From assembly GCA_964514595.1 (NCBI GenBank), contig CAZEQZ010000002.1, positions 185,663-249,662 of the forward strand: a stretch of DNA of 64,000 nt, in the 5' to 3' direction. Source of the stretch: an uncultured Candidatus Saccharibacteria bacterium. Its GTDB lineage: Bacteria > Patescibacteriota > Dojkabacteria > SC72. A program made the translations under genes and the position numbers. Below the pieces are notes generated by a model that saw only the letters and a program-made list of their open reading frames with translations, searched no databases and was not told where the DNA came from. The number at the start of each line of letters is the position of its first letter. The first letter of the stretch is position 1. Positions 21,077-54,458 of the stretch are shown here, one piece after another.

Positions 21077-22246
21077 CTACTTTATAATCTCAGTAACTAC
21101 TCCGTGACCTACTGTTTGACCACCTTCTCTAATTGCAAATGTAACACCCTTTTCTATTGCAACTTGAGATACTAACTTAACGGTAAATTCAGTATTATCA
21201 CCAGGAGCTACCATCTCAGTACCTTCCTCCAACACAACCTCACCTGTAACATCAGCTGTTCTTACATAGAACTGAGGCTTATACCCTGTTACGAAAGGAG
21301 TGTGTCTTCCACCTTCCTCTTTACTTAACACATATACCTCTGCCTTAAATTCTGTATGAGTTGTAACAGATCCTGGTATTGCCAATATCTGACCTCTTTC
21401 AATATCTTCCCTCTTAAGACCTCTTAATAGGATACCGACATTATCTCCTGCTTGACCTTCGTTCAATGTTTTATTAAACATCTCTACTCCAGTTACTGCT
21501 GTCTTCTGAGCTTTTCTTCCCATTCCAAGTATTTCTACATCCTGACCTACTTTTATTACTCCTCTCTCAATTCTTCCTGTTGCAACTGTTCCTCTTCCTT
21601 CGATAGAGAATACATCTTCTACAGGCATAAGGAATGGTTTGTCTATATCTCTTTCTGGCAAATCAATATATTCGTCAACTGCCTTCATCAATTCTCTTAC
21701 TGATTCCAATCCCTCTTCCTCACCCTTCTCTGCCTTTAATGCATCACCTACAACTATTGGTGCATTTCCATCATAGCCATACTTCTCTAAAAGATCTTGT
21801 ATGTCGGCCTTGATGAGCTCCAATATCTCCTCATCTGCTTCACCAAACTTGTTGATGTATACCACAACCTTAGGAACCCCTACCTGCTTAGCTAGCAAAA
21901 GGTGCTCTTTTGTTTGAGGCATAGCACCATCATTGGACGATATAACTAAAATTGCACCATCCATCTGTGCTGCACCTGTGATCATATTCTTAATATAGTC
22001 TTTATGACCAGGGCAATCTACAAGTGCGTAGTGCCTATTATCAGTCTCTAACTCAACGTGTGCTACTGATATTGTAATGGACTTAGCTCTAGACTCTGGA
22101 TCTTTATCTAGCTTGTCCTTAATGCTGTCTGCTGAATCTCCAGCGAAAGCGTTTAGAATACCACGAACCAAAGTAGTCTTACCGTGATCAATATGACCTA
22201 AGGTTCCGATATTCATGTGTGGCTTTGTTCTTTCAAAATCTGCCAT
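21077..22246 (-). CDS. tuf: Elongation factor Tu
   Basis: [18 protein letters not shown] and NKFG GTPase motifs, then EF-Tu domains 2 and 3. Confidence 0.95.
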
Positions 22247-29859: not shown

Positions 29860-31038
29860 CTATATTTTTACCAAGTATCTTGCACTTACCCACCCTACTA
29901 AATCAGCTCCATACTGTACCTGATACCAACCTTCCTCCTCCCCTAGTAAAATGAAGACAGTACCATCATCTGCACTGTCCAATATTTTACAACTTGACCA
30001 CCTACACTCTCTAATATTCACGAAATTATATGTCGGAGAAGATACTTCCACTAATTGCTTCTCTCCCCGAGAGATTTCAAATTTAACATCAAAAGAGGAT
30101 CCTTCAAATGGCTTTCCTTCAAACTTAAGCAATTCGAACGATTCAGTAGCTTCTCCTAATAAGACTCTTGCTTCCAATTCAAACTCCACCTCCACGGATT
30201 CTCCAGGTAGTATGTTCTTATCCGATACACTCACAGGCTTACTAAAACTTTCCCATTCCTGATTTATTGCAAAGCTACTCTCCTTCCCATCTTTTACAGA
30301 TATATATACTGGATCCCTGTCTGTGAACCAAATAAAGTCATTATTATTCTTAAATTTCACCTTCACCTTTAGCCTTTCTCCTATCTCCAATTGCTCTTCA
30401 TGCACCACCTCTTCTATTCTCGCTCGATATTCTAGGTTCTCCGCTTCATATCCTTCCCAGCCTGAAAGTACTTCCAATACTGAATTAGCAAACTCTCCAG
30501 ATATTTCCTCAGCTGTTATGGTAGATAGTTTTCCTTCTTCCTGGTTAATATTTAGCTTTACTACAGAAAGTTGAGATATTCCCCAATTAGAGGATATCTC
30601 CTCTACCATTTGATTTAAAGAATCGGTAGCCCTATTTGAAAGTATGGAGTTGTTTGACATATATCCTATTGTGACTGCACCTTCCACTTCTCTAAGCTCT
30701 GGATTAGCACCAACACCACCCTCTTTGCCTTGATATATTATCCCATTCTCATCAAGGAGGTATGTATATGGGAGGTCGGAGAAGTGTAGTCTGGTTATAC
30801 TGTAGTAGTAGAGAGTCTTAACCCATTTTGCAGGATCTCTAAGTAGTATGTCGGAATCTGTTGTTACTTGAGTTATGTATATCTTAACTGGATTACTGTA
30901 TATGGTATTAGACTTGTCTGATAGTGAAGTGTCAAATTTCTGACTTTGCGTTGAGTAGTATGAAAATGCCAAAGCAGATGTTGGCTTAAATAGTGCCAAA
31001 GTAAGAAGGAGTGTCAAAAAAAGAATTGTTTTCTTCAT
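29860..31038 (-). CDS. Secreted protein with a degenerate PGRP/amidase_2-like domain and C-terminal bacterial SH3 (SH3b) domain
   Basis: Signal peptide MKKTILFLTLLLTLALFKPTSALA. YTYLLDENGIIYQGKEGGVGAN...TIGYMSNN resembles the amidase_2 core, but the Zn-ligand His residues are replaced. The C-terminal GWYQVQYGADLVGWVSARYL is SH3b-like. Confidence 0.35.
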   Translation of the reverse strand: MKKTILFLTLLLTLALFKPTSALAFSYYSTQSQKFDTSLSDKSNTIYSNPVKIYITQVTTDSDILLRDPAKWVKTLYYYSITRLHFSDLPYTYLLDENGIIYQGKEGGVGANPELREVEGAVTIGYMSNNSILSNRATDSLNQMVEEISSNWGISQLSVVKLNINQEEGKLSTITAEEISGEFANSVLEVLSGWEGYEAENLEYRARIEEVVHEEQLEIGERLKVKVKFKNNNDFIWFTDRDPVYISVKDGKESSFAINQEWESFSKPVSVSDKNILPGESVEVEFELEARVLLGEATESFELLKFEGKPFEGSSFDVKFEISRGEKQLVEVSSPTYNFVNIRECRWSSCKILDSADDGTVFILLGEEEGWYQVQYGADLVGWVSARYLVKI

Positions 31039-31078
31039 TCTAGATATCTTATCAACTATTGTTGTAAATTTGAAGTGA

Positions 31079-32122
31079 TTATTCGGGTGCGGGATCTAGT
31101 AACTCTATCTCTTCTGTTTGCTTCTCTATTAAATATTCTGGATTTATACCACATAGATATACTTGTATTTCAGCAAGGTATGTACTTTTGGTAGAATCCA
31201 GCAGTTTTCCAGTTCCTGTTAATTTATACGCAGGGAAGACATATGAGTAATCATAGTTCATAAATACGTATAAATTATCTACGCCTTCAACTTCCAAAGA
31301 TGAGAGTCTAGCAGAAGAACGTACTAAAATATCTTGTTCCCAAAATCTTTCTTCCACAGAGTTTCTCATAAGGTGCATTGGATATTTTGTAAATTTGAGT
31401 ATCTCATCAACTGATATGGTAGGCATCTTCTGTATGGGAACCAATCCTCTCTCAACATCATGAAGAAGAATTGCAAGTGAATACATTCTATTATCCCCCT
31501 CAATACGAATTTCAAATGCATTTCCCTCTAGATATAAAGATCCATACTTAATACCATCCTTTACAAAGAATCCTTTATATAAGTATGAATTCTCGGACTG
31601 CTTCTTTGTCTCTAAAAGCTCTATCTTCTCAATATTAAAATATGTCTTTAAAAATATATCCAAGTCTTTTGCAGAATTAATTTTCATATCTAAGTTAAGT
31701 CCTGTTTGAGATGTAACATAAAATACTCCTGTGTCTTCATCGTATAAGAATGTGTCTGTTTCAAAGGTCTCGTATAATTGATTCTCGTTTGCAATATAAC
31801 GATCGTCCAAATCGTAGAAGTTCTTTATAAAGTTTCTTGCCACAGAGAGATCTGGCTTGTGTAGCTTATATACCATCTGATACTTATCGAATTCTGAGCT
31901 TTCTCCCTGGAGGTTTAATGTAAAATTATCGCTTAATTCCGCAAATGGACTCTCTATGGAGATTATCTCTCCTGCGGGGATATCTTCTTCAACCTTCTTT
32001 GATTTTAGAAAGATTATTGCAATAACAGATAAACCCAGAACAATTCCTATTATTATATACACACCGTAATTTTTTATTATTTTTTTTATTCTATCCATCT
32101 TATCTAGCAAATCCTTTAACAT
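31079..32122 (-). CDS. Bitopic membrane protein (N-terminal TM anchor, extracytoplasmic domain of about 300 aa), unknown function
   Basis: The single hydrophobic helix VYIIIGIVLGLSVIAIIFL follows a basic N-terminus. No catalytic motif was recognised. Confidence 0.4.
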   Translation of the reverse strand: MLKDLLDKMDRIKKIIKNYGVYIIIGIVLGLSVIAIIFLKSKKVEEDIPAGEIISIESPFAELSDNFTLNLQGESSEFDKYQMVYKLHKPDLSVARNFIKNFYDLDDRYIANENQLYETFETDTFLYDEDTGVFYVTSQTGLNLDMKINSAKDLDIFLKTYFNIEKIELLETKKQSENSYLYKGFFVKDGIKYGSLYLEGNAFEIRIEGDNRMYSLAILLHDVERGLVPIQKMPTISVDEILKFTKYPMHLMRNSVEERFWEQDILVRSSARLSSLEVEGVDNLYVFMNYDYSYVFPAYKLTGTGKLLDSTKSTYLAEIQVYLCGINPEYLIEKQTEEIELLDPAPE

Positions 32123-34649
32123 AACTCTTTATCTCAGAATCTAGTTTAGCTGTGCCCGAACTAGAAATACCTTTAGACCAATCTTCCAAGGTCTGTTGAT
32201 CATATCCTCTAGATAACATTGCATCCCTAATCTGTGTTCCAGATTTCACACCATCTATCGTATGAAATTTATATCCTCCATAATTTCCAGAGATTATCTC
32301 AGCTCCCACTTCCATTCCTAGAGGATTTCCATTTAACCCTCCGCTTCTATACTGTACTAGGTGCGTAACCTCATGGACCATGAGACCTTGGAAGTATGAT
32401 AATCCCGCAGAACCCGCCTTTGAAGAATTACATATTATTCCATTATACCTAGCTACACACCAAGCCCATTCACTATACGTACTAGAGAATGTTCCATCAT
32501 CCACAAAGGTCAAAGAAACTCCACTGAGTCCAAATCTTTCTAGGATACTATCGAAGATTTCTTGATAATCGCCTCCCAATAGTTGCCCTATCATATCCTC
32601 CTTCCCTACGGGAGTCCCCGTGGGATCTATTTCATCTATCATATCAGGAGCACCACATGATACTACTTCAAATGGAGCTACATGAGAATGTACCCCCAAA
32701 AGAGAGCTCCCGAATATGATGACAAATCCCGCAAGAGCAACTATTCCCGCTAGGAAATAAACCAAACCCTCCACACCTATCTTAATAGCGTGAGCACTCA
32801 TCTTCATTAAAGGTTGGGATAGTTTGTATACTAACTCAGAAGCAAGGAAACTAATTAATCCTGCGATAGGAGTTCCTACAACCCCAAGTGCAGACGAAAT
32901 TGCTGTAGTGATACCTTTAACTAAGGTTTGTACCCCTCCTTTCAACATCCAATCCTTTACTAAGGCAACTGCTACCGAATTTTTTATACCCAACAATAGT
33001 ACTTTTCCTACAGCATTTCTAACATGAGAAAGAACATGTTTATTTATTAATCCATCTATTTTATCCCTAATTCTTGATATTGTTCCAAATGTCTTATACA
33101 GGTTAGACAACCTCGCATCTTTTTTTAGAAATTTATCTATCATCTCCATTTGTTGAGTAGATACTCTTCCTGCCAAACTTCGTACATATGCATCATCTCC
33201 CTTCTCTAATTCTGCAAGAAATCTAGTCCAATCGAAATTCGATATCTCTCCTAAAATTTGTTTCTTAAACTTTTCCTGCGATCTATACGCTAGATATCCA
33301 AAGCCCTCTCCATCTATCAATGTCTTAACCCAAGCAGCCGGAGAAAGGTAGTAGACAGAATTCATTTTATCGAAGTATGCCTGCTGGAATCGATTAGTTG
33401 CTTCTTTTGCTGCATGGATCTTCAAACTATGCCCCCTTCTTGTAAATGCTTGCTCTTTAGATGGTTGTAACCAATTAATTTGATTATATTTATCTGCAAA
33501 GAATTTCCCGTTAAGAATATTCCCCATAAGGTTTCCGTCTATAAACAAATCTTTTGCAGAATAATACATTCCTTCCCATTGACCTAATTGCCCTGCAAAA
33601 TCTTCGAATCTAGACATTCTGATATCACCCTGTATGCTTCTCATTGAATTTTTTAGTTCCCTTATCTTCACATGCTTGTCTGGGTCGTTACTTCTTTGTA
33701 GTTGAGATATTGCATTAGAGATACTATTTAAATCTCCCTCTAATTTGTTTCTAAATGCTCTTGCAGCTGTTTGATCATATACATTGGCTACAACATCACT
33801 GGCTCTTTGATATTTCTCTGCCTTATCCATATCCCCCGCCATTCTTGCATCTACTGATTTTTTAGAAAGGTTAGCCTTTTCTAAGACGGTATATAGTTCA
33901 CGATTAACAAGTAATTCGTCTCTTATTTTTTCAAAGTTATTATTACTCAAGTGGGTGGAGTAGCTTTGTCTCCATTTTCTATATTGGTTCCACTTCATAT
34001 CCGCCTGTGCATCCCCTAGAGTACCACCGAACATATTTCTAAACTCCTGTCTTGTGAATTCCCTACTATTAGGATCTAGGTATCTTTGTGCTAATTTCTC
34101 ATTTCTGTATGTCACACCAAAGGTGTCGTATTGAGTTCTCATACCTATTGGTTTTTTTGTAAACTCATCTACTTTACCCCCTCTTCCTGCTGCAACCATT
34201 GCTTCTTGAGTATCCTTATCCAATCCATATTTCTTTGCCCACATGTATCCAACTATACCTCTCATTTCCTCCCCTGCCCAAGCTATTCGTTGCTGTTTTC
34301 TAATACCCTCTATCTTCTTGTATTGAGCATCTATGTATGTGCTCGGATTTTCCATCAACTTTTTCAGCTCTCCAAGATTGAACTTGATATTATCTGGAAC
34401 TCTCTTTCCTACACTTACGGTACCCACATCCACATCGAAGGCGTTATTGAAGGCCTCCATTGTCGTCTTATTTACATATAGGAGGGGATTTTCTAGTACA
34501 GCAGTTAAAGCATCAACCATTTCAGAGGAACCATCTACACCAGTGACCTTAACTGGCTTAACTTTATTGGGAGGCTTTTGGGACTCTTCAAATATGAAAT
34601 CAAAAACCGATCCCAGGGCATCTTCGTATTGCTTCTTTTGCTGTGGCAT
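32100..34649 (-). CDS. Large (849 aa) protein: soluble N-terminal region of about 640 aa, cluster of TM helices, C-terminal HExxH zincin-like domain
   Basis: No signal peptide. Hydrophobic helices around residues 640-730 (GLISFLASELVY, LVYFLAGIVALAGFVIIFGSSLL). Motif GLMVHEVTHLVQY with a downstream Glu (GMEVGAE) near the C-terminus. Confidence 0.45.
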   Translation of the reverse strand: MPQQKKQYEDALGSVFDFIFEESQKPPNKVKPVKVTGVDGSSEMVDALTAVLENPLLYVNKTTMEAFNNAFDVDVGTVSVGKRVPDNIKFNLGELKKLMENPSTYIDAQYKKIEGIRKQQRIAWAGEEMRGIVGYMWAKKYGLDKDTQEAMVAAGRGGKVDEFTKKPIGMRTQYDTFGVTYRNEKLAQRYLDPNSREFTRQEFRNMFGGTLGDAQADMKWNQYRKWRQSYSTHLSNNNFEKIRDELLVNRELYTVLEKANLSKKSVDARMAGDMDKAEKYQRASDVVANVYDQTAARAFRNKLEGDLNSISNAISQLQRSNDPDKHVKIRELKNSMRSIQGDIRMSRFEDFAGQLGQWEGMYYSAKDLFIDGNLMGNILNGKFFADKYNQINWLQPSKEQAFTRRGHSLKIHAAKEATNRFQQAYFDKMNSVYYLSPAAWVKTLIDGEGFGYLAYRSQEKFKKQILGEISNFDWTRFLAELEKGDDAYVRSLAGRVSTQQMEMIDKFLKKDARLSNLYKTFGTISRIRDKIDGLINKHVLSHVRNAVGKVLLLGIKNSVAVALVKDWMLKGGVQTLVKGITTAISSALGVVGTPIAGLISFLASELVYKLSQPLMKMSAHAIKIGVEGLVYFLAGIVALAGFVIIFGSSLLGVHSHVAPFEVVSCGAPDMIDEIDPTGTPVGKEDMIGQLLGGDYQEIFDSILERFGLSGVSLTFVDDGTFSSTYSEWAWCVARYNGIICNSSKAGSAGLSYFQGLMVHEVTHLVQYRSGGLNGNPLGMEVGAEIISGNYGGYKFHTIDGVKSGTQIRDAMLSRGYDQQTLEDWSKGISSSGTAKLDSEIKSYVKGFAR

Positions 34650-34662
34650 AGATATTTAAAAA

Positions 34663-35970
34663 CTATTTAAACATACTTCCAACAAATGGAACTTTTCCAA
34701 ATCCTTCCTTAATTGCCGCAGCTGCATCTGCACCACTCTTGGATGCTGTGGGAGGAATTATTGCTTTTGCCAAGGCAGGAGCTTGAACTGCAGCATAGAT
34801 AGCTATTAATTTTGCTAAAGCGATTAGCATAGGGCCCATATCTCCTATGCTTGCCTGATCACCTGTAAGAGATTTAGGAAAATCTATTGATATGTTTTTT
34901 GTTTCTAGATAGAAGGGTATGTTAACTATGGCAAATGCTATTGGAAAGACTAGGGCATTACGAAATATTGATTTAAATATATTAACTATACTAGCATCAT
35001 TTCCTGGTAAGGAGCCTAACATTATTGATAATGGAGCAACTATCACATTCAACAGTATAGCTAAGTATGATTTAACTAATGTAATCCAAAGCTTTATTGC
35101 TCCAACTAAGGCCGCTCCAGCAATAATTATTCCCAATATAATGGGGATTAATCCGGCTACCGCATTCAGTGTTGCTAACCCCAAGACTATTCCAACTAGA
35201 GATATTGAGGAACCTGTCTGAGCTCCTCCACTCCAAGTTACTGCCCAAATATCATGTATTGGGACCCCACTTCCTAGAAGACTTTTTATTACTGTCATAA
35301 GGACACCGCATATGTCAATAATTACTCCCGCTATGGCAAAACTAAAGGTTACCAAGACTAATGATATTACAACCCTTGGAAGTGTATTACCTAATGTTAC
35401 CAAGGTCTGACCTCCCAGTTTACTTCTAAACATTATCATAAAGCCTACTGCAATCATCACTACAACAAAGGCAAGGTACGCTATATTTCTTGTAAAGGAC
35501 CATATTTCATCAACACCGGTACTCCTAATATCATCATAACCTGAAGCATATATAGATTGTGTCTCTTTATATCCTGGAACCCATTCCCTTGAGAGATGTG
35601 CTATGACATCAATCCTTGGTTGAGAATCAAACATGGCTGTAACTTGACGTTCAGCGGTACCTAATAAACCGTATTTCATCTGATCAGGATAATTTCCTGT
35701 TTGTATCCTAGGATTCGCTTCCGTACACTCTGGACAAAGTATAGCAAGTATGAATTCTCCTATTCCCGTAATGATTTTCCCTACAAACTGGGCTATACTT
35801 TCCCCTACAAAGCCAGTCAGATCTCCAACAAAGGAAACTATATGTTCCCATGTGGTCTTTGTGTCTATGGGTTCACCTAGCGTATCTTGGGCCAGTATAG
35901 GGGAACTTAAGCTTGTGATGAATACAAATAGTGTGGTCATCAATACAACAATTATCCTAAGAGCTTTCAT
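34663..35970 (-). CDS. Polytopic membrane protein, TrbL/VirB6-like topology (signal peptide, extracytoplasmic loop with a Cys pair, about 6 TM helices, Ala-rich C-terminus)
   Basis: Hydropathy pattern. CPECTEANP loop. TM-rich Gly/Ala/Ile core. The family assignment is by architecture only. Confidence 0.35.
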   Translation of the reverse strand: MKALRIIVVLMTTLFVFITSLSSPILAQDTLGEPIDTKTTWEHIVSFVGDLTGFVGESIAQFVGKIITGIGEFILAILCPECTEANPRIQTGNYPDQMKYGLLGTAERQVTAMFDSQPRIDVIAHLSREWVPGYKETQSIYASGYDDIRSTGVDEIWSFTRNIAYLAFVVVMIAVGFMIMFRSKLGGQTLVTLGNTLPRVVISLVLVTFSFAIAGVIIDICGVLMTVIKSLLGSGVPIHDIWAVTWSGGAQTGSSISLVGIVLGLATLNAVAGLIPIILGIIIAGAALVGAIKLWITLVKSYLAILLNVIVAPLSIMLGSLPGNDASIVNIFKSIFRNALVFPIAFAIVNIPFYLETKNISIDFPKSLTGDQASIGDMGPMLIALAKLIAIYAAVQAPALAKAIIPPTASKSGADAAAAIKEGFGKVPFVGSMFK

Positions 35971-35997: not shown

Positions 35998-37440
35998 TTA
36001 TATTAACAAATAATGCTTTGCTGATTCTCTGTTTAATTCCAAAACTTCATTCCAATACTCTATAAACGTTGGAATAAAGTCTTCTTGACCAGGAGCCTTG
36101 TCTTTAGCCTGCATTCTATAATTCATTAGGAAAGGTGTCGCATCCCATAGACACCACACATCAAATTCTCCTGTTGCTCCATTATCATAAGTTGCTATAC
36201 CACTACATTGTGTAGCTACATAGAACATTAAACTATCTTCAATATTATTAGAGACCTCCTTCTTAGAGGCTGTTTGAAAAGGAGCCTGTGTAGCAAGGTA
36301 TGTGTATGTCATAAAAGCATTAGAACATATACCATTATTACAATCATATGTGTTCCCAAATATTGGTGTCATTTCTACCATGAGACCCCTAGATCTAGGA
36401 CATTTCTCACGCTTAATAGATTTATTCCCCTCTTCATCTATAATTTCAACACCATCTTCATCACAGTAGTCCCATTGATTGGAGCTAAACGTTTGTCTAA
36501 AAAGACCCTTGAAGCGTGTATATATTGATCTTTGGTCACACGCCTTCCATACCCCATCATTAGTACCTAAAAAAGTAACACTAACACTACTCAAACACTC
36601 CGCTTCTCGTTGATAATCATAATTATCTCCTCCTGGGATTTGCTGTCTCGTAAAGCCACCCCCGCTATCTCCCCTCAGATTACTAGCCCCAACGTTGAAA
36701 TCGCTTGTACTAACCTCACGAGGACAGTTACACGCGGGATCATTTTCCGCATTATCTATGTTATATCTTCCATCTCTCTTTTCCTGCTCCTGATTAGCAG
36801 AGACAGTTAATTGACCAGTAACTTCAAATGCCTGTCTTTCAGTAGCTGGCAACTCTTTCACGAAGGCATCGGACTGATATGGAGCCATAGTCTTTTCCAC
36901 TATCGCACCTTCCCACTCTCCACTAGAAGAATACGACGGATCATCCACTCTAATCTGTCTGTTACTATCCTTCATAGTATATGGACCTAACCAGAGAGCG
37001 AGAGGATATGTGACCATAGTAAGTTCAAAATCAACTATATTTTCCACCTCAACTTCATCTCCGGAGAATCCCACAGGATCACCTCCATAATTAGGAACTT
37101 CATAGTGAATCTGTGCACCACCAGATGAGCAAAGCCTTCTCTCCAAATCTACAATATTAGCAGGTTGTCTACACAAAGATGATATCTCTCCCTTAACCTC
37201 TCCTCCCTCTGCATACTCGGTAGCGTTACTATCTTCCAAAAATACATACTCTACATTCTCTGTTACTATATTTTCTTCCCTACTAGGAGAGCATGTTGAG
37301 CACTGTTGCGCATCTTTATTCAACCACCTCCCATCGAACGAAACCTTTATACTTTTAGCTAGGTATACTGAGAAAAGAGCAAAGAATAGCATGCCTAAAA
37401 GAAACAAGATCCCATTTTTCCTACTATTTTTTATACTCAT
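35998..37440 (-). CDS. Secreted cysteine-rich protein (480 aa, about 17 Cys)
   Basis: N-terminal signal anchor (ILFLLGMLFFALFSVYLA). Cys clusters (CSTCSP, PACNCPRE, DYCDEDG, YDCNNGICSN). No known catalytic motif. Confidence 0.4.
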   Translation of the reverse strand: MSIKNSRKNGILFLLGMLFFALFSVYLAKSIKVSFDGRWLNKDAQQCSTCSPSREENIVTENVEYVFLEDSNATEYAEGGEVKGEISSLCRQPANIVDLERRLCSSGGAQIHYEVPNYGGDPVGFSGDEVEVENIVDFELTMVTYPLALWLGPYTMKDSNRQIRVDDPSYSSSGEWEGAIVEKTMAPYQSDAFVKELPATERQAFEVTGQLTVSANQEQEKRDGRYNIDNAENDPACNCPREVSTSDFNVGASNLRGDSGGGFTRQQIPGGDNYDYQREAECLSSVSVTFLGTNDGVWKACDQRSIYTRFKGLFRQTFSSNQWDYCDEDGVEIIDEEGNKSIKREKCPRSRGLMVEMTPIFGNTYDCNNGICSNAFMTYTYLATQAPFQTASKKEVSNNIEDSLMFYVATQCSGIATYDNGATGEFDVWCLWDATPFLMNYRMQAKDKAPGQEDFIPTFIEYWNEVLELNRESAKHYLLI

Positions 37441-39293
37441 AATGCTCTAATCATTTTACCCCCTTTCCTTTGTCTTGTCACACTTCCTTTATATGTGACT
37501 ACCCCTATAGAGATAAGGGCAAAGGAAAGCAATATTAAGTATACTACATTATCCAATATTCCTGTTTTTGGAGTTTCTATCCCCGAATCTACTTCATACT
37601 CTGAATCGTCTGGAGTAACTACTAAATCAGGATTTACACCCGTACTATGTCCTAAGATTCCGTAGTTCTGAAGTAGCTCTACCCTTGTATACCCCACTCC
37701 TGAGCTAGAATTCCCCTCTACGGATATTTCAACATCCCTATCACTTATGCCTTGCATTTTCTCTGTATGTGTACTTGCTGAGAATGTTGTTACCAAATTT
37801 ACATTAAGCGAATCTTCAGACGTATACTCAAAGTATGAGGTACCGTCCTGAACTCTACTTTCGGCTATTGATAGTATCCATTTACCATTCTCATCAACTA
37901 GGGTAGAGAGTTTTAGACTTTCTCCCTTACTTCCTGCACCATCTTCATCCTTAATATGTACCGTAACTACTACTTCCTTATGCTCTGGCATACCATCTAT
38001 CACTCCAGTCACAGATTCGAATGGTGGAGGAGATGTAAGTGTAGAGAAAGTTTTCACTACATATTTATTCCCCCCATTATCGTATTTATTATCCCCTGAT
38101 TCTATCTCAAAGAAATACTCAGTATCTGGTTGTAGTCTACTTAGAACTACAGAGTGGATATAGTAGTTACTTTTTGTTGTAAGGCCATCTCTTTCATCAG
38201 TAGCTTGACTAGACAAAGAATCACGGGAAGTTCCATAGTTAATATGACCTTTCTCTTTATTCTCTGATATCCAAAGAACCGTAAAGCCTGTGTCTGTTAG
38301 GTTTGTTGTTTGCACACTTGCAGCACCAGACACACCCGAGACTGCTGATCCATCTCCCGTGACCATATCTATCCATTGCAAATTATGTACTATCCTAAAT
38401 ACTCTTCCTGTGTTTCCAGTTGGAGTATCATCTGTCTCCTGGGCTGGAGGGGTTGTCGGAGTTGTTGGCGTTGTCGGTTGTGTGGGCTCTTCTGGTTCTG
38501 CTACAAATGCCTCCAACATAGATACAGGAGGAAAGTCGTTGTATAGAGAGGAATTATCGCCAATTGTTAAGGCATACACATCCTTCAATTTACCACTGCT
38601 ATCAAATAGTTCGGAGTATGTACCTTCCTGTACTGCACCTTTATTAGGACCGGAGATAGCAACAAGAACTATGTTAGTAGAATTGGTAACTACAATAGGG
38701 GTCTTATTGGCAATACTTCTAAATGCAGAGAGGTCTATAACCCAATTACCTCCTGTGGGAATGGTGGTTGATACAGGATACGCAGATTTATCTTTAAGAA
38801 GGGCATATATTATTACATCGTCTCCCACTACCCCCTTAATTCCTCCATGTATGGGATTGGGAGTTGCAGACGTCTCTGTTATTGGAGCAGTTTTGAATGC
38901 AAAGTTTTTGTTTCCTTCACTACGATACTTCTCTCTATCCGATACTATTACAAATTCGTATTGAGTATTTGGATCTAAGTCTTCAATATCGATATGGTGC
39001 GTGTATCTTCTTCTATTACCTCTTTTTGTATCAACAATGGGACTTTTTTCTATTCCATTTTGGATAGGTATTACAGAACCAAATGACTGTACATCTGTGA
39101 CCCAGCTTACGGTAACGGCACTTGTAGTTAATTTACTAATAACAACATTACGAGGTTGTGCCTCTGCTGACGCTCTCGTTATGAGTTGGTATGCTTGGTA
39201 TGATGCAAAAACTACCAAAGGTATTCCTATTAACAGTATCCCTATTATCGTGAGATCTCTTCTTCTTTTACTAGGTACAGTAGCTATTCTCAT
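37437..39293 (-). CDS. Cell-surface protein: N-terminal TM, two purple-acid-phosphatase-N-type fibronectin-III-like domains, Pro/Thr linker, C-terminal TM anchor with basic tail
   Basis: VVISKLTTSAVTVSWVTD...YTHHIDIEDLDPNTQYEFVI and FTVLWISENKEKGHINYG...YYIHSVVLSRLQPDTEYFFEI. PTQPTTPTTPTTPP linker. The C-terminal ETPKTG + LILLSFALISIGVV + RQRKGGK. Confidence 0.5.
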   Translation of the reverse strand: MRIATVPSKRRRDLTIIGILLIGIPLVVFASYQAYQLITRASAEAQPRNVVISKLTTSAVTVSWVTDVQSFGSVIPIQNGIEKSPIVDTKRGNRRRYTHHIDIEDLDPNTQYEFVIVSDREKYRSEGNKNFAFKTAPITETSATPNPIHGGIKGVVGDDVIIYALLKDKSAYPVSTTIPTGGNWVIDLSAFRSIANKTPIVVTNSTNIVLVAISGPNKGAVQEGTYSELFDSSGKLKDVYALTIGDNSSLYNDFPPVSMLEAFVAEPEEPTQPTTPTTPTTPPAQETDDTPTGNTGRVFRIVHNLQWIDMVTGDGSAVSGVSGAASVQTTNLTDTGFTVLWISENKEKGHINYGTSRDSLSSQATDERDGLTTKSNYYIHSVVLSRLQPDTEYFFEIESGDNKYDNGGNKYVVKTFSTLTSPPPFESVTGVIDGMPEHKEVVVTVHIKDEDGAGSKGESLKLSTLVDENGKWILSIAESRVQDGTSYFEYTSEDSLNVNLVTTFSASTHTEKMQGISDRDVEISVEGNSSSGVGYTRVELLQNYGILGHSTGVNPDLVVTPDDSEYEVDSGIETPKTGILDNVVYLILLSFALISIGVVTYKGSVTRQRKGGKMIRAL

Positions 39294-39341: not shown

Positions 39342-42300
39342 TTATCTTACACTAGGATGCCAGTTACCTACACCCTTTATAACCCTTACGAAGTATGATC
39401 TTTGTTTTTCTATAGGAAAATCAAAGCCGTAGGTTTGAGCACTACCCTCTACAGAAGTATCTCTTTGAAAACCTTCATACGACCCCTTACTCTCTTGCCA
39501 CCTAGTAACATTATCTGCATCAAAATCTATACCTTTGTAGTTAGCTATGTCTTCTAATAATGATTTAGCTGTGTATGATTTAGCCTTAGAACCGTATACC
39601 CCTACTAAGTTCCATCCAGGAATTAGTAGTATGGGTGCAGAATCTCCTATTTGTTCATATTTTATTTCTTTACCAAAGAGAGAAACTCTTATATCCTTTT
39701 TAACATTTAACAGATATCCCTCACCTGGGAGTATCCTAAAGTCATTCTGATCATAGTTACCTGCATTAGCTCCAACTGAGATCCATTTACCATTTTCTAA
39801 TTTTGATATAGAGGAAACAGAATTACCAATGACACTGTTTAGATATTTAATAAGACCGGAAGCTTTATTTAATTCAGATCTTTCATTTATAAAAGGAAAG
39901 GATATCAAATTGAAACCTTTTTTAAGGTCATACCTGTATTCTCTTTGTATTGTAATAACCTCTAAGGTTTCAAAATCTTTACTTAGATTAGTATCTCCTG
40001 AGTCTATTATTCCGTTACCATTAGAGTCCAAGTATACATCAGCACCTTTTGAGTCTGTATCATTTATTATAGCTAAGTAATAATCACCATTTACATTGAA
40101 TATATGCACCCCTCTTCCTACCCTCTCCAAGATGTCTTCTTTTGTATTTATAATATATGACTCGAACTCCTCTGTCTCTTCAGCAAAAACTTTCCCTAAG
40201 ATACTAAATCCTTTGCTCTCAAAGCTTAAGCTTTTATCTTCATTTGTATTCTGAATACTACACCTAGTGTATCTCCCTGAGCCCGAGCCACATACTCCAA
40301 AGTCTTCTATATACGTTTTTATAGCAAAATTTCTATCTTGTGTTGCTTTCATACTCTCGTATTTTTCCTGAGTAATAGGGACCCACTCTTCCTCTGCTGT
40401 AAATTCGTTAATTAATATAGTGGCTACTACAACTCCCCCTACCACAAGAGCTGCTGTTCCCAATCCGACACCCGTTGTTGCCGCTGCTGCTTCTGTAGTT
40501 ATATATATTGTTGGCGCCTGACTAACCGCAAGAGCTGAAGTAGAAGTAGATGCGGCTGTGGTAGCTAGCGATGAGCCTGTGTATACTGTAAGTGCTTTGG
40601 TCCCTACGTAGGGGACAATAGGATACAAACTAGCAGAGGCATATGGCATATCATCAAGTATCTTCTGTATTTCAGGATCTGGTTCTTTTGCATTATTTTC
40701 TTTAAACTTTGCCCATAGTCGATCTACTGCACCTATACTATCACAGTGATAATACATACCTGTATCCGCATTATGATATAGAGTACCCGCTTGCCCATCA
40801 CATTCCTTTCCTGACAAATTGTCAGCCGGAGGGACTTGTAGAAAAGGCATTGCCTGAGCACCAGCTTCTGCATCTATACCAACCCCTTCATCTGGACTCA
40901 TAGAAATACCGTACTCATGTCCTTCGATCCCCCAACGTTTCGTTTCTCCATTACATTTAAGACTACCATCTATGGTAACATAGCCATCACTAAACCAACA
41001 TTTATATGTATAACTATAACAATCCCGTGTAGTACCTGTATTAAATCCTCCACATAGACCTCTACTGTCGGCTTCATCCGCCATTCTATCCCTTAATTCA
41101 TCTGTATATTTATCTTCCGTATCTGGATGTACTTTCACTCTTCCATCTGGGGTACATAAGCACATTTGTGCTGGACCGATGGGTTTTTGTTCATTTGCAC
41201 ACGCACAATCACACTCTTGACTATTACTATATCCACACATCCCCATGTGTCCACAAATATCACCTACACATGTACCTTGTACTCTATTAAAATTAATCTC
41301 ACAATCAGAAGTAAAAACGTCAAAGGTCCCAAGACCAGAAACATTAATTCTTTTACACATTGGAATATCTACCCCATCTATTTTTTTTGTACATGCGTCG
41401 TTAAAACAACTTCCCAGTTCACAACTAACTGAACCTTGCCCCCCACTTGTATCTCTTCCATTAGAACCTGCAAATATCTGTTCATTTATATCCGCATCTA
41501 TAGGGTCCGTACAAGAACCATCAAGCGGATCTAAACAATACCCACCATCATTACTAGGTTCAAATTTAGGAGTACAATCGGGATCCCCCCACCCCAATCT
41601 AGAATCACTACAAACTTCACATTGATTATTATCTCCTCCATCTGTATCCTCCGCACTCACTCCGAAAACAAAAGCTCTTAAATCTATACCATTGAAATCC
41701 TTATTTGTATTAACTACCTCCTTATTCTCTTTCCCAAAAGAATTACCCTCATATATGACACTCTCATCTAACTCATCATCCATTCTCATATCTATAGCCT
41801 TTGCAGGTGCCTTATTATATACATCTATCTCAGTACTCCATCTCCCTTTCCACGTATTCTCTATCGTTAACTTAAGTTTTATATATGTACCTTCATAATC
41901 CTTTACACTATCCCAAAAAGTTGTACCATCCTCCATATATGCATTCATAATATCTAAATACCATCCACCTTCTTCATTTGTAATAGATGAAATCATCTCA
42001 GATTCCACTTGATATATCTCTTCATATACCGTCGCATACACTATTGCATCAGAAGGCCTCTCATAGCCAACCACATCATCTACGTAGTACCTAACAACTC
42101 CATATGCTGGTTCAGGAGTCCTAATTTCCTCAATCTCTTTTCCTGTCTTAAAAGAGTATTCCCCAGTATTCTCAGAAGAAACCCTCTTAAACACATTCCC
42201 ATCCCCAATCATGAAATAGTACTCTTTATTAGATTCCAAACCTCGTATGGTAGCATGATGGACATAATATTCACCCATATCTGTAACTACTATATCGGTA

Positions 42301-42731
42301 AATATCTCCCCTGCATCCACACTACTACTTCCTTCCTCTGATACTTTCTCAGAATTCCTCTGTGCCTCATCTAATTCAGCCTTAGTATAGTCTCTATCAT
42401 CATATGCTAACAAAGAGTTTCCAATCTTGGGCATAAAGGGAAGAATAAAATTTCTCTCCTGATACATAACCATCCCAGGAGTTGGCTCTTCTGTAATCCA
42501 AGATACTGTTGCTGATCCTGCAGTCACATTACTAACCATTACCCTATATGGCACAAAAGAGGATGCCTTATACCATCCCCATATACCTATTCCTATAACG
42601 GCTACTAAACAAACAACTAATACAGGAATAATTACTTTAAGGAAATTAAACTTACCCTTTTCTTTAACCTCAACTTGCTGAACCTGCGGTTCTACGACTG
42701 AAGGAGGAGTCTCTTGATTACCTTCGTACAT
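39342..42731 (-). CDS. Giant (1129 aa) surface protein: N-terminal TM, PAP-N-type Fn3-like domain, long Cys-rich extracellular module, internal hydrophobic segment, C-terminal domain
   Basis: MVSNVTAGSATVSWITEEPTPGMVMYQE...YYVHHATIRGLESNKEYYFMIGDG is paralogous to the neighbouring 618-aa protein. More than 40 Cys lie between residues about 365-660. A TM-like GVGLGTAALVVGGVVVATIL segment follows. Confidence 0.5.
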   Translation of the reverse strand: MYEGNQETPPSVVEPQVQQVEVKEKGKFNFLKVIIPVLVVCLVAVIGIGIWGWYKASSFVPYRVMVSNVTAGSATVSWITEEPTPGMVMYQERNFILPFMPKIGNSLLAYDDRDYTKAELDEAQRNSEKVSEEGSSSVDAGEIFTDIVVTDMGEYYVHHATIRGLESNKEYYFMIGDGNVFKRVSSENTGEYSFKTGKEIEEIRTPEPAYGVVRYYVDDVVGYERPSDAIVYATVYEEIYQVESEMISSITNEEGGWYLDIMNAYMEDGTTFWDSVKDYEGTYIKLKLTIENTWKGRWSTEIDVYNKAPAKAIDMRMDDELDESVIYEGNSFGKENKEVVNTNKDFNGIDLRAFVFGVSAEDTDGGDNNQCEVCSDSRLGWGDPDCTPKFEPSNDGGYCLDPLDGSCTDPIDADINEQIFAGSNGRDTSGGQGSVSCELGSCFNDACTKKIDGVDIPMCKRINVSGLGTFDVFTSDCEINFNRVQGTCVGDICGHMGMCGYSNSQECDCACANEQKPIGPAQMCLCTPDGRVKVHPDTEDKYTDELRDRMADEADSRGLCGGFNTGTTRDCYSYTYKCWFSDGYVTIDGSLKCNGETKRWGIEGHEYGISMSPDEGVGIDAEAGAQAMPFLQVPPADNLSGKECDGQAGTLYHNADTGMYYHCDSIGAVDRLWAKFKENNAKEPDPEIQKILDDMPYASASLYPIVPYVGTKALTVYTGSSLATTAASTSTSALAVSQAPTIYITTEAAAATTGVGLGTAALVVGGVVVATILINEFTAEEEWVPITQEKYESMKATQDRNFAIKTYIEDFGVCGSGSGRYTRCSIQNTNEDKSLSFESKGFSILGKVFAEETEEFESYIINTKEDILERVGRGVHIFNVNGDYYLAIINDTDSKGADVYLDSNGNGIIDSGDTNLSKDFETLEVITIQREYRYDLKKGFNLISFPFINERSELNKASGLIKYLNSVIGNSVSSISKLENGKWISVGANAGNYDQNDFRILPGEGYLLNVKKDIRVSLFGKEIKYEQIGDSAPILLIPGWNLVGVYGSKAKSYTAKSLLEDIANYKGIDFDADNVTRWQESKGSYEGFQRDTSVEGSAQTYGFDFPIEKQRSYFVRVIKGVGNWHPSVR

Positions 42732-42802: not shown

Positions 42803-43126
42803 CTACTTCTTCAAACCTGAGAAAAAATCTCCTACTATTGATATTGTACTACCTATCTTCTTAATGGGTATTAGTATAGCTTCATTTATCTTCCCAACAG
42901 TACCTTTTACTGTGGACACCATATCCTGCACATCATCTACTATGAGAGTAGCCTGTTCCATTATCTTGTTAGCATTCTTTATTATCTCTCTGGAATCTTT
43001 AACAGCATCCTTCGATTCCCTTATGAGCATAGCCAAATAGTATAGAACCAAGGAGAACATAATCGTAATGGCCGATACAATAATCATCCAAAATATCGCC
43101 GGTATTTCTGACATAGTAATAATCAT
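42803..43126 (-). CDS. Small membrane protein, DUF948-like (N-terminal TM plus coiled coil)
   Basis: A 107-aa protein. An N-terminal hydrophobic helix is followed by a charged helical segment (KDAVKDSREIIKNANKIMEQATLIVDDVQDMVSTVKG). Confidence 0.4.
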   Translation of the reverse strand: MIITMSEIPAIFWMIIVSAITIMFSLVLYYLAMLIRESKDAVKDSREIIKNANKIMEQATLIVDDVQDMVSTVKGTVGKINEAILIPIKKIGSTISIVGDFFSGLKK

Positions 43127-48536: not shown

Positions 48537-50096
48537 CTATTTAATAACCTTATAACAATGTATTTCGTCACCCTCTTTGACATCTATCTGATCTATTAAT
48601 TGAATTCCACAATCAAATCCAGTTTTCACCTCATTAACAGTATCTTTATTTATCCTCAAAGTCTTTATTTTTGATTCCCCAATTATCTCATCATCTCTTA
48701 CTATATCAACCTTACAATCCTTCTTAAGGTAGCCCTTGCTTACTCTACAACCCACTATCGTAGTACCATCGGACAGAGTAAATAGTGCCTTCACCTTTGC
48801 ACTTCCTATCTCCTCTTCCTTGCTTGTTGGCAATGACATCAATGATACGGCTTCCTGAACTTCTTCTATCAACTTATATATGATTTCATATGTTTTAACC
48901 AATATTCTTTTCTTTTTAGAATAGTCCATAACACCAGATTCTATTCCCACCTCAAATCCTAAAAGTATTGCTTTAGAAAGTTCTGCTAACTCCGCATCAC
49001 CCAAACTAATATTACCTACACCTGCGTTAACTATCTTAACCTTATATCCATCTTCCTCTATTTTACTCAGTGAATTAACTATAGCTTCTAAAGAACCTTC
49101 AGAAGAGCTTTTCACTACAACATTTAGGAAATCTCCTAAGTCTTCTTCACTCAAGGTGAAAAACTCTTCTAAAGTTACATCCTCTTCCTCGTCTTCTTTT
49201 TTTTCTTCTTTGTACATAGATCTTAATTTTGCTTCGTCCTTTTTTTCTAGAATATATATCTGGGTACCAAGCTCTAAGAGATTTGACACTCCAATAATCT
49301 TCCCTCCACAACCGCAATCAAGCATGCATAGATTTTCTCCTTCCTCTGTTATTATCCCCTTTACCTTCTCTAGAACAAATTCGCCATCTAATTTGTATCC
49401 TAACCAATTTCCTTGACACACCTCTCCCTGGATTAATGCTATTGAGGACATATTGCCTTTAAATTTATCCTTTACCGATTCCAACACGAATGCCTTCCCT
49501 AATATCCCAGAAGGAAGTTCATCAGACTCTCTTACTCCCTCTACTTCTGCAACGAGAAGTATTAAATCCAAAAGTTCTGGAATACCTTTTCCTGTTTTAC
49601 CAGAAACCTCGATCACAGGTACGCTTCCTCCATACCCTTCTAACTGAAGACCGTTATTAACTATATCTCTTTTTACCTTATCTAAAGATATATCTGGAAG
49701 ATCTGTTTTATTTATCACAGCAATTGGTTTGGCATCAGAATTGTTAATTATCTCTATTGATTCTTTTGTTTGAGGTTTAACACCATCATCAGCAGCTACT
49801 ACTAAAAGTACAATATCCGCAATACTACCTCCTCTAGATCTCATTAAATCAAATGCTTCATGGCCAGGAGTATCAACAAAAGTTACTCTCTCTCCATTAG
49901 GAATCTGTACTGTGAATACTGATACTTTCTGCGTTATACCACCTGCTTCACAACCCTGAACGTTGCTTTCTCTAATTTTATCTAGTATGGTGGTCTTTCC
50001 GTGATCTACATGTCCTAAGATAGTTACAATAGGGGGTCTAGCACAACCTTGTGTGCTTTTAGAGTCCTTGTTTGTAACCTTCTTTGCCTTAGGCAT
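48537..50096 (-). CDS. infB: Translation initiation factor IF-2, short form (519 aa, no long N-terminal region)
   Basis: G-domain GHVDHGKTTILD, DTPGHEAF and NKTD motifs, then beta-barrel domains. Confidence 0.9.
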   Translation of the reverse strand: MPKAKKVTNKDSKSTQGCARPPIVTILGHVDHGKTTILDKIRESNVQGCEAGGITQKVSVFTVQIPNGERVTFVDTPGHEAFDLMRSRGGSIADIVLLVVAADDGVKPQTKESIEIINNSDAKPIAVINKTDLPDISLDKVKRDIVNNGLQLEGYGGSVPVIEVSGKTGKGIPELLDLILLVAEVEGVRESDELPSGILGKAFVLESVKDKFKGNMSSIALIQGEVCQGNWLGYKLDGEFVLEKVKGIITEEGENLCMLDCGCGGKIIGVSNLLELGTQIYILEKKDEAKLRSMYKEEKKEDEEEDVTLEEFFTLSEEDLGDFLNVVVKSSSEGSLEAIVNSLSKIEEDGYKVKIVNAGVGNISLGDAELAELSKAILLGFEVGIESGVMDYSKKKRILVKTYEIIYKLIEEVQEAVSLMSLPTSKEEEIGSAKVKALFTLSDGTTIVGCRVSKGYLKKDCKVDIVRDDEIIGESKIKTLRINKDTVNEVKTGFDCGIQLIDQIDVKEGDEIHCYKVIK

Positions 50097-53584: not shown

Positions 53585-53663
53585 AACAGAATGATTTTAG
53601 CAAAGTATGTATATATTTGCTACCCATTTTATCTACAATCTTAAATCTGCTAATATCTATACT

Positions 53664-54458
53664 ATGGAAAATAGTTGGAACGTACAAACACATAGTGAAA
53701 ACAAAGTACGAAGAATACGCATATGGATATCTGCTGTATTGGCACTGTCTGGTTTAGTTATAGTTTCCAGCCAGGTTATACCTTTGACAAAATCATACGT
53801 GGAGGGAGTGGTGGAACAAAGGAGAGTTGACATAAAGGTGGATCCTGTACCAGAGTCGTATAAAAAATATATAGAAGAAGAGTTCGCATATTATGATCCT
53901 GGGAAGAGCTACTTTGCAAATCTTTCCCAGCAGTTGGGGAATTTAGACATTACAGGACAATACTCATATAACCCAGATACCAAGACACAAAGAGAAGTTC
54001 TAATAGACAGAGAGTACAAGACGGATATGTCCGTCACTATTGAGAGTGTAGGGATTAAAAATATTAAAATATCATCGAACGTGGAGAGTTCTAATGAATC
54101 TGTATACAATCAATATCTTAAAAATGGTGTTGCCCACTTTAAAGGTACACCTCTTCCGGGAGATGGAGGAAATTCGTTCATATATGGGCATAGCGCTGTT
54201 GAATCATTTTTTAGTAGACATAGGGATTTGCCTGAAACAATATTTTCTAGACTGAATGATATAGATATTGGACAAAAGGTTGTTGTAAATAGAGAGGATA
54301 AAGTATTAGAATATATCGTAAGGAACAAGAAGATTGTAGATCCTGATGATTTTACAATCCTACAACCTTTACACAACAAAGAAACAGTAACATTAATGAC
54401 TTGTTGGCCTTTGGGTATAGGAACTAAGAGATTAATAGTAGTTGCTGAAAGGAGATAA
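53664..54458 (+). CDS. Sortase (cysteine transpeptidase); the ORF is open from 53607, but the second Met at 53664 is the more plausible start
   Basis: N-terminal TM anchor. Catalytic His in NSFIYGHSAV. TLxTC motif VTLMTCWP. Conserved Arg nine residues later (TKRLIVVAE). Confidence 0.7.
   Translation: MENSWNVQTHSENKVRRIRIWISAVLALSGLVIVSSQVIPLTKSYVEGVVEQRRVDIKVDPVPESYKKYIEEEFAYYDPGKSYFANLSQQLGNLDITGQYSYNPDTKTQREVLIDREYKTDMSVTIESVGIKNIKISSNVESSNESVYNQYLKNGVAHFKGTPLPGDGGNSFIYGHSAVESFFSRHRDLPETIFSRLNDIDIGQKVVVNREDKVLEYIVRNKKIVDPDDFTILQPLHNKETVTLMTCWPLGIGTKRLIVVAERR

Follow-up and report, generated by a model that had tools for sequence, protein, structure and literature searches.

The window analyzed here, a stretch of 64,000 nucleotides of contig CAZEQZ010000002.1, contains as its longest open reading frame (ORF; 39342..42731, minus strand) the gene of a predicted membrane-anchored surface protein of 1129 amino acids, which belongs to a family specific to Dojkabacteria. 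The middle of this protein is formed by an acidic, Gly- and Asp-rich region with 24 Cys (residues 371-663, 40743..41621, minus strand), as delimited by Cys positions and composition. Our best explanation, to which we give about an even chance, is that this segment represents the lineage-specific and fast-diversifying variable head of a type-II membrane-anchored surface protein, stabilized by disulfides, exchanged as a cassette, and serving partner recognition or evasion. The family itself is uncharacterized and restricted to one phylum, and it varies the well-known theme of the variable surface protein.

The original prediction had placed a eukaryote-like extracellular module with more than 40 Cys in about 300 residues at residues 365-660 of a 1129-residue protein. 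The protein and the placement hold: the ORF was confirmed at 39342-42731 on the minus strand, positions 40750-41640 correspond to residues 364-661, and the three peptides quoted are found verbatim (CEVCSDSRLGWGDPDC at residues 371-386, CLDPLDGSCTDPIDAD at 399-414 and CVGDICGHMGMCGYSNSQECDCAC at 488-511). The Cys enrichment is real as well, but its extent was overstated, since we count 23 Cys in the 298 residues from 364 to 661; residues 371-663 contain 24, and the entire protein 27. With 7.7% Cys the segment exceeds the background of 0.68%, calculated from the 43 further ORFs in the window that reach 150 amino acids, approximately 11-fold (binomial P = 3e-17). It has a pI of 4.18 and contains 13.4% Gly, 11.4% Asp and four His. 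The GC content of 40% does not indicate a foreign origin.

Conserved ends and an exchangeable middle

The family was defined by a homologue search together with a scan in which each GTDB species was represented by one genome. This gave 79 loci, nearly all of them labeled Candidatus Dojkabacteria or candidate division WS6, within the candidate phyla radiation (CPR); many automatically binned metagenome-assembled genomes carry the label "uncultured Saccharibacteria". The 70 full-length ORFs share one plan, which consists of an N-terminal anchor, a pair of FN3-like domains, a hypervariable and in most cases Cys-rich middle of 350-900 amino acids and a C-terminal domain (C-domain) of approximately 270 amino acids. 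A single N-terminal hydrophobic segment is found in most of these 70 relatives, and six have none at the threshold used. The window protein is a member of this family, with the C-domain motifs GFNxxSFPF, GWNLVG and YGxDFP, and several paralogues occur per genome. Full-text literature searches yielded no description of the family, nor any of Cys-rich surface proteins from Dojkabacteria.

Conservation differs strongly between the ends and the middle. The median identity of the window protein to 68 relatives is 28-29% for the N- and C-domains, compared to 2.5% for the middle, and in a BLAST comparison with the 79 loci the window middle matches one locus only. In tandem paralogues of one genome the N- and C-domains are 56-67% identical, the middles approximately 20%. 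The 69 middles represent 46 distinct full-length types, which are linked by common local modules. Flagellin, a filament subunit with coiled-coil ends, also combines conserved N- and C-termini with a hypervariable, exposed central domain. The likeness is one of design logic only: the ends of the Dojkabacteria protein are 28-67% identical, the middle is at noise level, variable in length, and different between paralogues and between strains. Unlike flagellin, to which it has no sequence or fold relation, the Dojkabacteria protein is predicted to be membrane-anchored, to have beta-sandwich ends and to be disulfide-rich in its variable part.

A transition inside the gene was observed between the family members P0003 and P0012, which come from two Joint Genome Institute (JGI) samples. 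Their last 200 amino acids are 98-100% identical and their middles at most 30%. The DNA of the two loci (L085:2117-3007 and L086:10239-12817) is 97% identical in the final 596 bp of the gene and 95% in the downstream flank, and blastn found no similarity upstream of the shared 3' part. This is a sharp recombination breakpoint inside a family gene of near-identical strains. The downstream flank of L086 also contains two extra genes (137 and 402 amino acids) that L085 does not have. The reverse of the usual pattern is seen between two species representatives (L012:10913-12892 and L013:10913-12889), with the middle 84% identical and the N- and C-domains 64% and 75%; this sequence comparison suggests that here the middle cassette was laterally exchanged. 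The P0003/P0012 transition and the L012/L013 middle together indicate that whole cassettes are exchanged and retained, which is not the pattern of drift.

These observations also bear on the idea that the middle is an inert, disulfide-stiffened spacer, which would merely hold the C-domain at a distance and whose diversity would reflect relaxed constraint, with only the Cys being of importance, plus occasional recombination. The wide range of the middle, 350-900 amino acids in length and 0.8-9.4% in Cys content (median 5.4%), would suit a spacer. So would the fact that the conserved and presumably functional parts are the N- and C-domains, and that no ligand-binding domain is detectable in the window middle. 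A spacer does not easily account for the abrupt shift within one gene from 97% DNA identity to no similarity in near-identical strains, for a middle that is better conserved between species than its flanks, or for tandem paralogues that retain different middles. We regard the spacer as possible, but doubtful.

Three explanations of the variability were rejected for this window. A diversity-generating retroelement would require a direct repeat of the template repeat/variable repeat (VR) type, and none involving the gene is found in the 64-kb window; such an element also does not fit a variable part that lies centrally and extends over hundreds of residues, compared to a C-terminal VR of approximately 100 bp. 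Phase variation and tandem repeats were discarded as well, as there is no simple-sequence repeat in the gene.

Cysteine modules, probable disulfides and their alternatives

Within the Cys-rich segment one part is conserved, a 12-Cys core delimited by alignment (residues 488-593, 40953..41270, minus strand). It is composed of a first module with eight Cys, GxCxxDxC...CG...CxCxC...PG..CxC, and a second "CYSYTxxCW" module with four, C...CYSYTxxCW...C. All 12 Cys are invariant across six aligned sequences that are otherwise 27-35% identical, and a seventh sequence has the first module only. The core is the sole part of the segment with relatives, namely in P0002, P0003, P0005, P0012, P0015 and partially P0004. 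A search of 5.8 billion proteins with the core alignment (A2) returned no match, although this collection holds at least five members bearing the core; the empty result is due to the word-index limit for short Cys-rich queries and does not mean absence. The scan of metagenome contigs with A2 returned only the contigs of P0003 and P0005 again, plus one weak match. In the AlphaFold2 (AF2) model the core folds into two small beta modules with a predicted local distance difference test score (pLDDT) of 61-73. Beyond the core, 26 of the 69 middles of the family contain a recurrent mini-module, C-x(2-6)-C-x-C-x(10-18)-C, in many cases close to the C-terminal end of the middle.

Of the 48 Cys-rich middles of relatives, 43 have an even number of Cys (P = 7e-9). 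Together with the single N-terminal anchor, the FN3-like domains and the invariant Cys of the core this argues that the segment is probably extracellular and likely contains structural disulfides; this part of the original prediction is supported in general terms, while its description of the module as EGF/TSP3/furin-like, repetitive and eukaryote-like does not. A thiol-disulfide oxidoreductase similar to MdbA, encoded adjacent to VKOR, is widespread in the CPR (bioRxiv 10.1101/335083), which makes extracellular disulfides plausible. A partial Pfam scan of the 64-kb window revealed neither MdbA/DsbA-like nor VKOR genes.

Cys clusters could instead bind metal, as Zn or Fe-S sites or for the sequestration of heavy metals, and a first hint in this direction is that CxC, CxCxC and one CxxC are present in the segment of an organism that is an anaerobe. 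Cys numbers that are multiples of four are somewhat over-represented as well, with 29 cases against 14 other even counts in a count by hand; this is equally explained by four-Cys disulfide modules. The spacing of Cys in the family middles points the other way, with CxxC accounting for 3.5% of the gaps, CxC for 7% and a gap of six for 9%. CxxC is not a favored spacing, which argues against Zn or Fe-S sites. The region further lies outside the membrane anchor, contains few His, and matches no metal-binding Pfam family. Metal binding by the Cys-rich region is therefore unlikely, and we would give metal clusters in place of disulfides very little credit.

The reading of the segment as EGF-, TSP3- or furin-type disulfide-knot repeats with calcium sites, either acquired from eukaryotic adhesion modules or convergent with them, found no profile, pattern, repeat or DxDxDG match. 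The isolated segment (residues 350-710) matches no Pfam family even at E <= 10, and NCBIfam and PDB sequence searches returned nothing for it. None of the 69 family middles matches a Cys-rich Pfam family either, so that these middles are a sizeable pool of Cys-rich sequence wholly outside Pfam. Hand-written patterns in the style of PROSITE for EGF (EGF_1, EGF_2, ASX_HYDROXYL), laminin-EGF (EGF_LAM_1), TNFR and TSP3 (DxDxDGxxDxxD) did not match. The best internal local alignment of the segment scores 31, compared to 38 +/- 6 for shuffled sequences, and 96 of 100 shuffles reach at least the observed score; the expected repeat periodicity is not there, and the gene contains no direct or tandem repeats at the DNA level. 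At the level of sequence, the empty Pfam and pattern searches speak against EGF-like domains, the lack of DxDxDG in residues 364-661 and of Pfam TSP_3 against thrombospondin type-3 repeats, and the lack of a Pfam match and the negative internal repeat test against furin-like or GF_recep modules.

The predicted calcium sites could not be found in the segment. The motif [DN]x[DN]x[DN]G is absent from residues 364-661, and CxC, CxCxC and the one CxxC are what is left of the proposed spacing. In the whole protein the motif matches twice, as NKDFNG at residue 343, upstream of the segment, and as DSNGNG at residue 902. The latter opens an EF-hand/dockerin-type Ca2+-loop motif, DSNGNGIIDSGD (residues 902-913, 39993..40028, minus strand), which is located in the C-domain and not in the Cys-rich segment. 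It is the sole match in the protein to the regular expression of the full loop, D-x-[DN]-x-[DN]-G-x-[ILV]-x(3)-[DE]. The loop is conserved in the family with the consensus YIDxNxNGxYDxxxD, in which D913 hardly varies.

With residues 350-710 as the query, HMMER identified P0003, P0012 and P0015 as the only true relatives among 1.84 billion representative proteins, all from the same bacterial family and aligned only at residues 478-613, approximately. No eukaryotic or other non-family relative was found among these representatives, and P0013 and P0014, repeat proteins without Cys, were discarded as spurious. Foldseek with the AF2 model of the core (mean pLDDT 52.5) gave a best PDB match at E = 0.95 and no Cys-rich module. 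As the model is poor, a distant fold match stays conceivable.

The segment does resemble EGF, TSP3 and furin repeats in being acidic, presumably extracellular and rich in Asp and Gly, and in being made up of small, Cys-dense modules, probably beta-hairpins. Repeats also exist elsewhere in the family: the middle of L028:3342-5219 has seven tandem Cys units spaced by 36-48 amino acids (TAQTNCxxSGGTWxxxxCNCGxKKxNxxTQKCE), which are not found in the window protein. The window segment differs from the eukaryotic repeats in all the points listed above, that is, in the lack of Pfam and pattern matches, of tandem periodicity and of DxDxDG, and its GC content is not foreign-looking. At the level of sequence comparison the EGF/TSP3 reading is largely refuted and we consider it highly improbable; the label "eukaryote-like EGF/TSP3" was wrong, as was the Cys count.

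Proposed function of the variable head

We propose the following mechanistic model. The N-terminal helix would serve as the anchor in the cytoplasmic membrane, and the two FN3-like domains would form a stalk across a Gram-positive-type wall. The acidic Cys-rich region is expected to fold into small beta-hairpin modules held by approximately 12 intramolecular disulfides, which could be made by an MdbA/DsbA-like oxidoreductase together with VKOR. The C-domain with its one Ca2+-type loop would perform an invariant docking or assembly task, probably by attaching to a partner that is itself conserved; the co-encoded wall-anchored FN3 protein and the cell wall are candidates. While the conserved ends assemble, the exposed middle would be free to vary and could be swapped as a cassette by recombination. 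Such a head would be suited to recognizing a variable ligand carried by a partner or host cell, to evading phages or other enemies that target the surface, or to both, its purpose being read from the diversification pattern alone. We infer the stalk and docking roles, as well as the extracellular topology and the disulfides. A role of the Cys-rich module in surface interaction is plausible, and a function in adhesion or host specificity is speculative.

The variant surface proteins (VSPs) of Giardia, a eukaryotic parasite, are rich in CXXC and have a C-terminal anchor. The Dojkabacteria protein is like these and other antigenically variable surface proteins in being, by prediction, membrane-anchored, with a diverse Cys-rich ectodomain, a conserved part proximal to the anchor, and multiple paralogues. 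Unlike in the VSPs the anchor is N-terminal and CxxC is not dominant; there is no homology and no sign of expression switching.

Several observations weigh against the variable, disulfide-stabilized head. The AF2 model of the Cys-rich region has a pLDDT below 50 outside the core and of 45-73 within it, which makes the predicted fold and any disulfide pairing uncertain. In some relatives the middle contains hardly any Cys (0.8-2%), and Cys richness is therefore not needed for the core function of the family. The occurrence of NrdD in the neighborhood of a paralogue indicates anaerobic life, and if Dojkabacteria are anaerobic, disulfide chemistry is less certain. The window protein occurs in identical form on 16 public contigs from several sources, the longest of about 760 kb, in keeping with the size of a CPR genome; it is annotated as "hypothetical protein", and no variant above 90% identity is found; ongoing hypermutation or phase variation is not indicated by such an invariant allele. 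Finally, all family members are unannotated or "hypothetical" except for one with a dubious automated name.

A further difficulty arises from an Ala/Thr/Ser-rich low-complexity stretch (residues 700-780, 40392..40634, minus strand), whose last part is, by hydropathy, a hydrophobic segment rich in Gly, Ala and Val (residues 754-779; hydropathy peak 2.31). Among 68 full-length relatives a true internal counterpart of this segment is found only in L055. The local GC content of residues 700-780 is 47%, compared to 34-40% elsewhere in the gene, and the stretch may be an insertion. The hydrophobic segment may form a second transmembrane (TM) helix, interact with membranes in another way, or be a strand buried in the fold. 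In the first of these cases the C-domain would be cytoplasmic and the model of the variable head would be broken.

A more specific proposal, which we consider rather unlikely, is that the family determines the host or partner specificity of Dojkabacteria by receptor binding, with the head cassette swapped between strains and paralogues in the way that phages exchange their receptor-binding tips, and residues 754-779 perhaps inserting into the partner membrane. If this is true, the type of the cassette would predict which host cell is open to attachment by a given strain. Dojkabacteria are very small and are believed to rely on other cells, and the CPR, or Patescibacteria, make up a large share of bacterial diversity, most of them thought to live attached to other cells. 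To our knowledge, almost nothing is known about partner recognition in the CPR outside the type IV pili of Saccharibacteria. A recent survey associated no adhesins with CPR type IV secretion systems (bioRxiv 10.1101/2025.01.22.634366). The present family is a concrete and testable candidate: it is confined to one phylum, its gene is part of a conserved envelope operon, and it has invariant ends, a cassette-like head and a documented breakpoint.

Remaining domains and the operon

The protein begins with a short cytoplasmic tail (KEKGKFNFLK) and a single N-terminal TM anchor (residues 1-57, 42561..42731, minus strand), predicted by hydropathy and AF2. The hydropathy peak over residues 25-57 is 2.96, AF2 places a helix at residues 30-58, and basic residues precede it. 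An FN3-like domain follows (residues 62-196, 42144..42548, minus strand), which is the only match of the whole protein to Pfam, to the family Pur_ac_phosph_N. This domain was assigned to the fibronectin type III/Pur_ac_phosph_N group, for which a profile score over the curated cut-off and a beta-sandwich of seven strands are required, and this assignment applies to the N-terminal domain only. AF2, Foldseek and alignment A1 support a second, family-conserved beta-sandwich domain of Ig/FN3-like type (residues 205-330, 41742..42119, minus strand), with AF2 strands at pLDDT 75-90; Foldseek aligned FN3 pairs over approximately 260 columns, which span both N-terminal domains. An isolated Cys pair, CGSGSGRYTRC (residues 814-824, 40260..40292, minus strand), is seen in the sequence of the linker ahead of the C-domain.

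The conserved, beta-rich C-domain (residues 858-1129, 39345..40160, minus strand) is the signature of the family by alignment and AF2. Compared to 36 relatives it is 28-45% identical and has 19 invariant columns; those in alignments A1 and A4 include G939, N941, S944, F945, G1039, W1040, N1041, Y1101, G1102 and D1104. The pLDDT is mostly 70-90 from about residue 930 on and approximately 40-63 over residues 858-930. No Pfam family at E <= 10 and no PDB sequence match better than E = 0.38 were found for the C-domain. A search of the 5.8 billion proteins returned 35 matches, which are unannotated or "hypothetical" with one dubious automated name; those labeled with an organism come from Dojkabacteria or Patescibacteria only. 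A deeper branch of the family (P0006-P0011) has an extra C-terminal Cys pair, e.g. ...CRSIWWNPGGEKNGEC, and P0004 has a C-terminal extension of approximately 115 amino acids with six Cys past the conserved domain. The window protein has neither.

The gene of the 1129-residue protein heads a tightly packed cluster on the minus strand, whose gene order is shared by 20-43 Dojkabacteria loci, the number varying with the gene considered. Relatives have pnp and rsmB/rsmE-like genes first, followed by one or two family genes, the gene of a small TM protein, and those from the two-FN3 protein onward. The small membrane protein (107 amino acids, 42803..43126, minus strand) is syntenic with the family in 43 loci. 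In most relatives its gene lies between the family gene and that of a 618-residue protein, and in the window it lies upstream of the 1129-residue gene (compared with L005, L014, L016, L018 and L034). Some genomes have two tandem family genes (L006, L020, L032 and L034), which suggests either that in the window genome the second-position copy is the one retained, or that a rearrangement took place there. A scan for promoters and terminators was uninformative, with fewer promoter-like sites than in shuffled sequences.

The 618-residue protein encoded downstream (37437..39293, minus strand) has two FN3/Pur_ac_phosph_N domains according to Pfam, a Pro/Thr linker and a sortase-type tail, in which TPKTG, a hydrophobic stretch and the basic KGSVTRQRKGGK form a sorting signal. 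Its relatives are found at 63 loci at E <= 1e-5, partly via the FN3 domain it shares with the 1129-residue family, and 18 of 44 relatives contain PxTG ([TI]P[KQNED]TG) within their last 60 amino acids. A sortase gene (53607-54458, plus strand) and a LytR-CpsA-Psr (LCP) enzyme (61146-62591) are also encoded in the window, and both fit a monoderm wall. The 1129-residue protein can be compared to the FN3/Ig-stalk adhesins of Gram-positive bacteria, which are sortase-anchored and MSCRAMM-like, by its FN3-like stalk, its monoderm context and this neighbor with an xPxTG signal. It is unlike them in lacking LPxTG and being held by an N-terminal TM helix; a sortase-anchored (LPxTG) surface protein was ruled out, as there is no such C-terminus. 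Its variable region and C-domain, moreover, have no relatives among characterized adhesins.

The next gene encodes an N-terminally anchored protein of 480 amino acids (35998..37440, minus strand), which matches no Pfam family. Of its 14 Cys (2.9%), most hardly vary among 37 orthologues. It is a second exported Cys-rich protein and, unlike the middle of the 1129-residue protein, it is conserved. By synteny the rest of the operon (29860..35970, minus strand) comprises a polytopic protein of 435, an HEVTH protein of 849, a single-TM protein of 347 and a secreted SH3_3 protein of 392 amino acids. The 435-, 849- and 392-residue genes recur in 20-34 loci and the 347-residue gene in six. The 435- and 849-residue products, both encoded within 32100-35970 on the minus strand, are found in approximately 34 loci each. 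The former has a signal peptide and about eight hydrophobic segments; in the latter a long coiled N-terminal region is followed by TM segments at residues 546-655 and a C-terminal MVHEVTHLVQ (HExxH, zincin-like). Against Pfam and NCBIfam the SH3 domain alone was recognized in these operon products; the 435- and 849-residue proteins match no family, the former even at E <= 10 in Pfam.

This conserved operon could point to a lineage-specific envelope machine, an attachment organelle or a secretion device, of which the 1129-residue protein would be a structural subunit with the Cys-rich part as its exposed tip. The tight packing and recurring order of the genes are in agreement with this, as is the fact that all operon products are membrane or exported proteins, and a machine would be compatible with the variable head and not exclusive of it. 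The search of the operon products against Pfam and NCBIfam revealed no secretion ATPase, secretin, pilin or VirB4/VirB6-type protein. Many paralogues are encoded outside the operon, beside the housekeeping genes LexA and NrdDGR or a four-Ig-domain surface protein. The polytopic 435-residue neighbor had suggested a link to Patescibacteria type IV secretion, which we rejected as no VirB-type profile supports it: the defining component of CPR type IV secretion is VirB4, with VirB3, VirB6 and VirB8-like partners (bioRxiv 10.1101/2025.01.22.634366), and VirB4 was not found among the scanned operon products. We judge such a machine unlikely.

The sole sizeable direct repeat in the window has 57 nucleotides at 75% identity (21906-21962 and 49762-49818) and joins an ORF of 389 amino acids (21077-22246) with one of 519 (48537-50096). 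From their N-terminal sequences we take these two to be EF-Tu and IF2; if this naming is right, the repeat would trivially represent a GTPase motif common to both.

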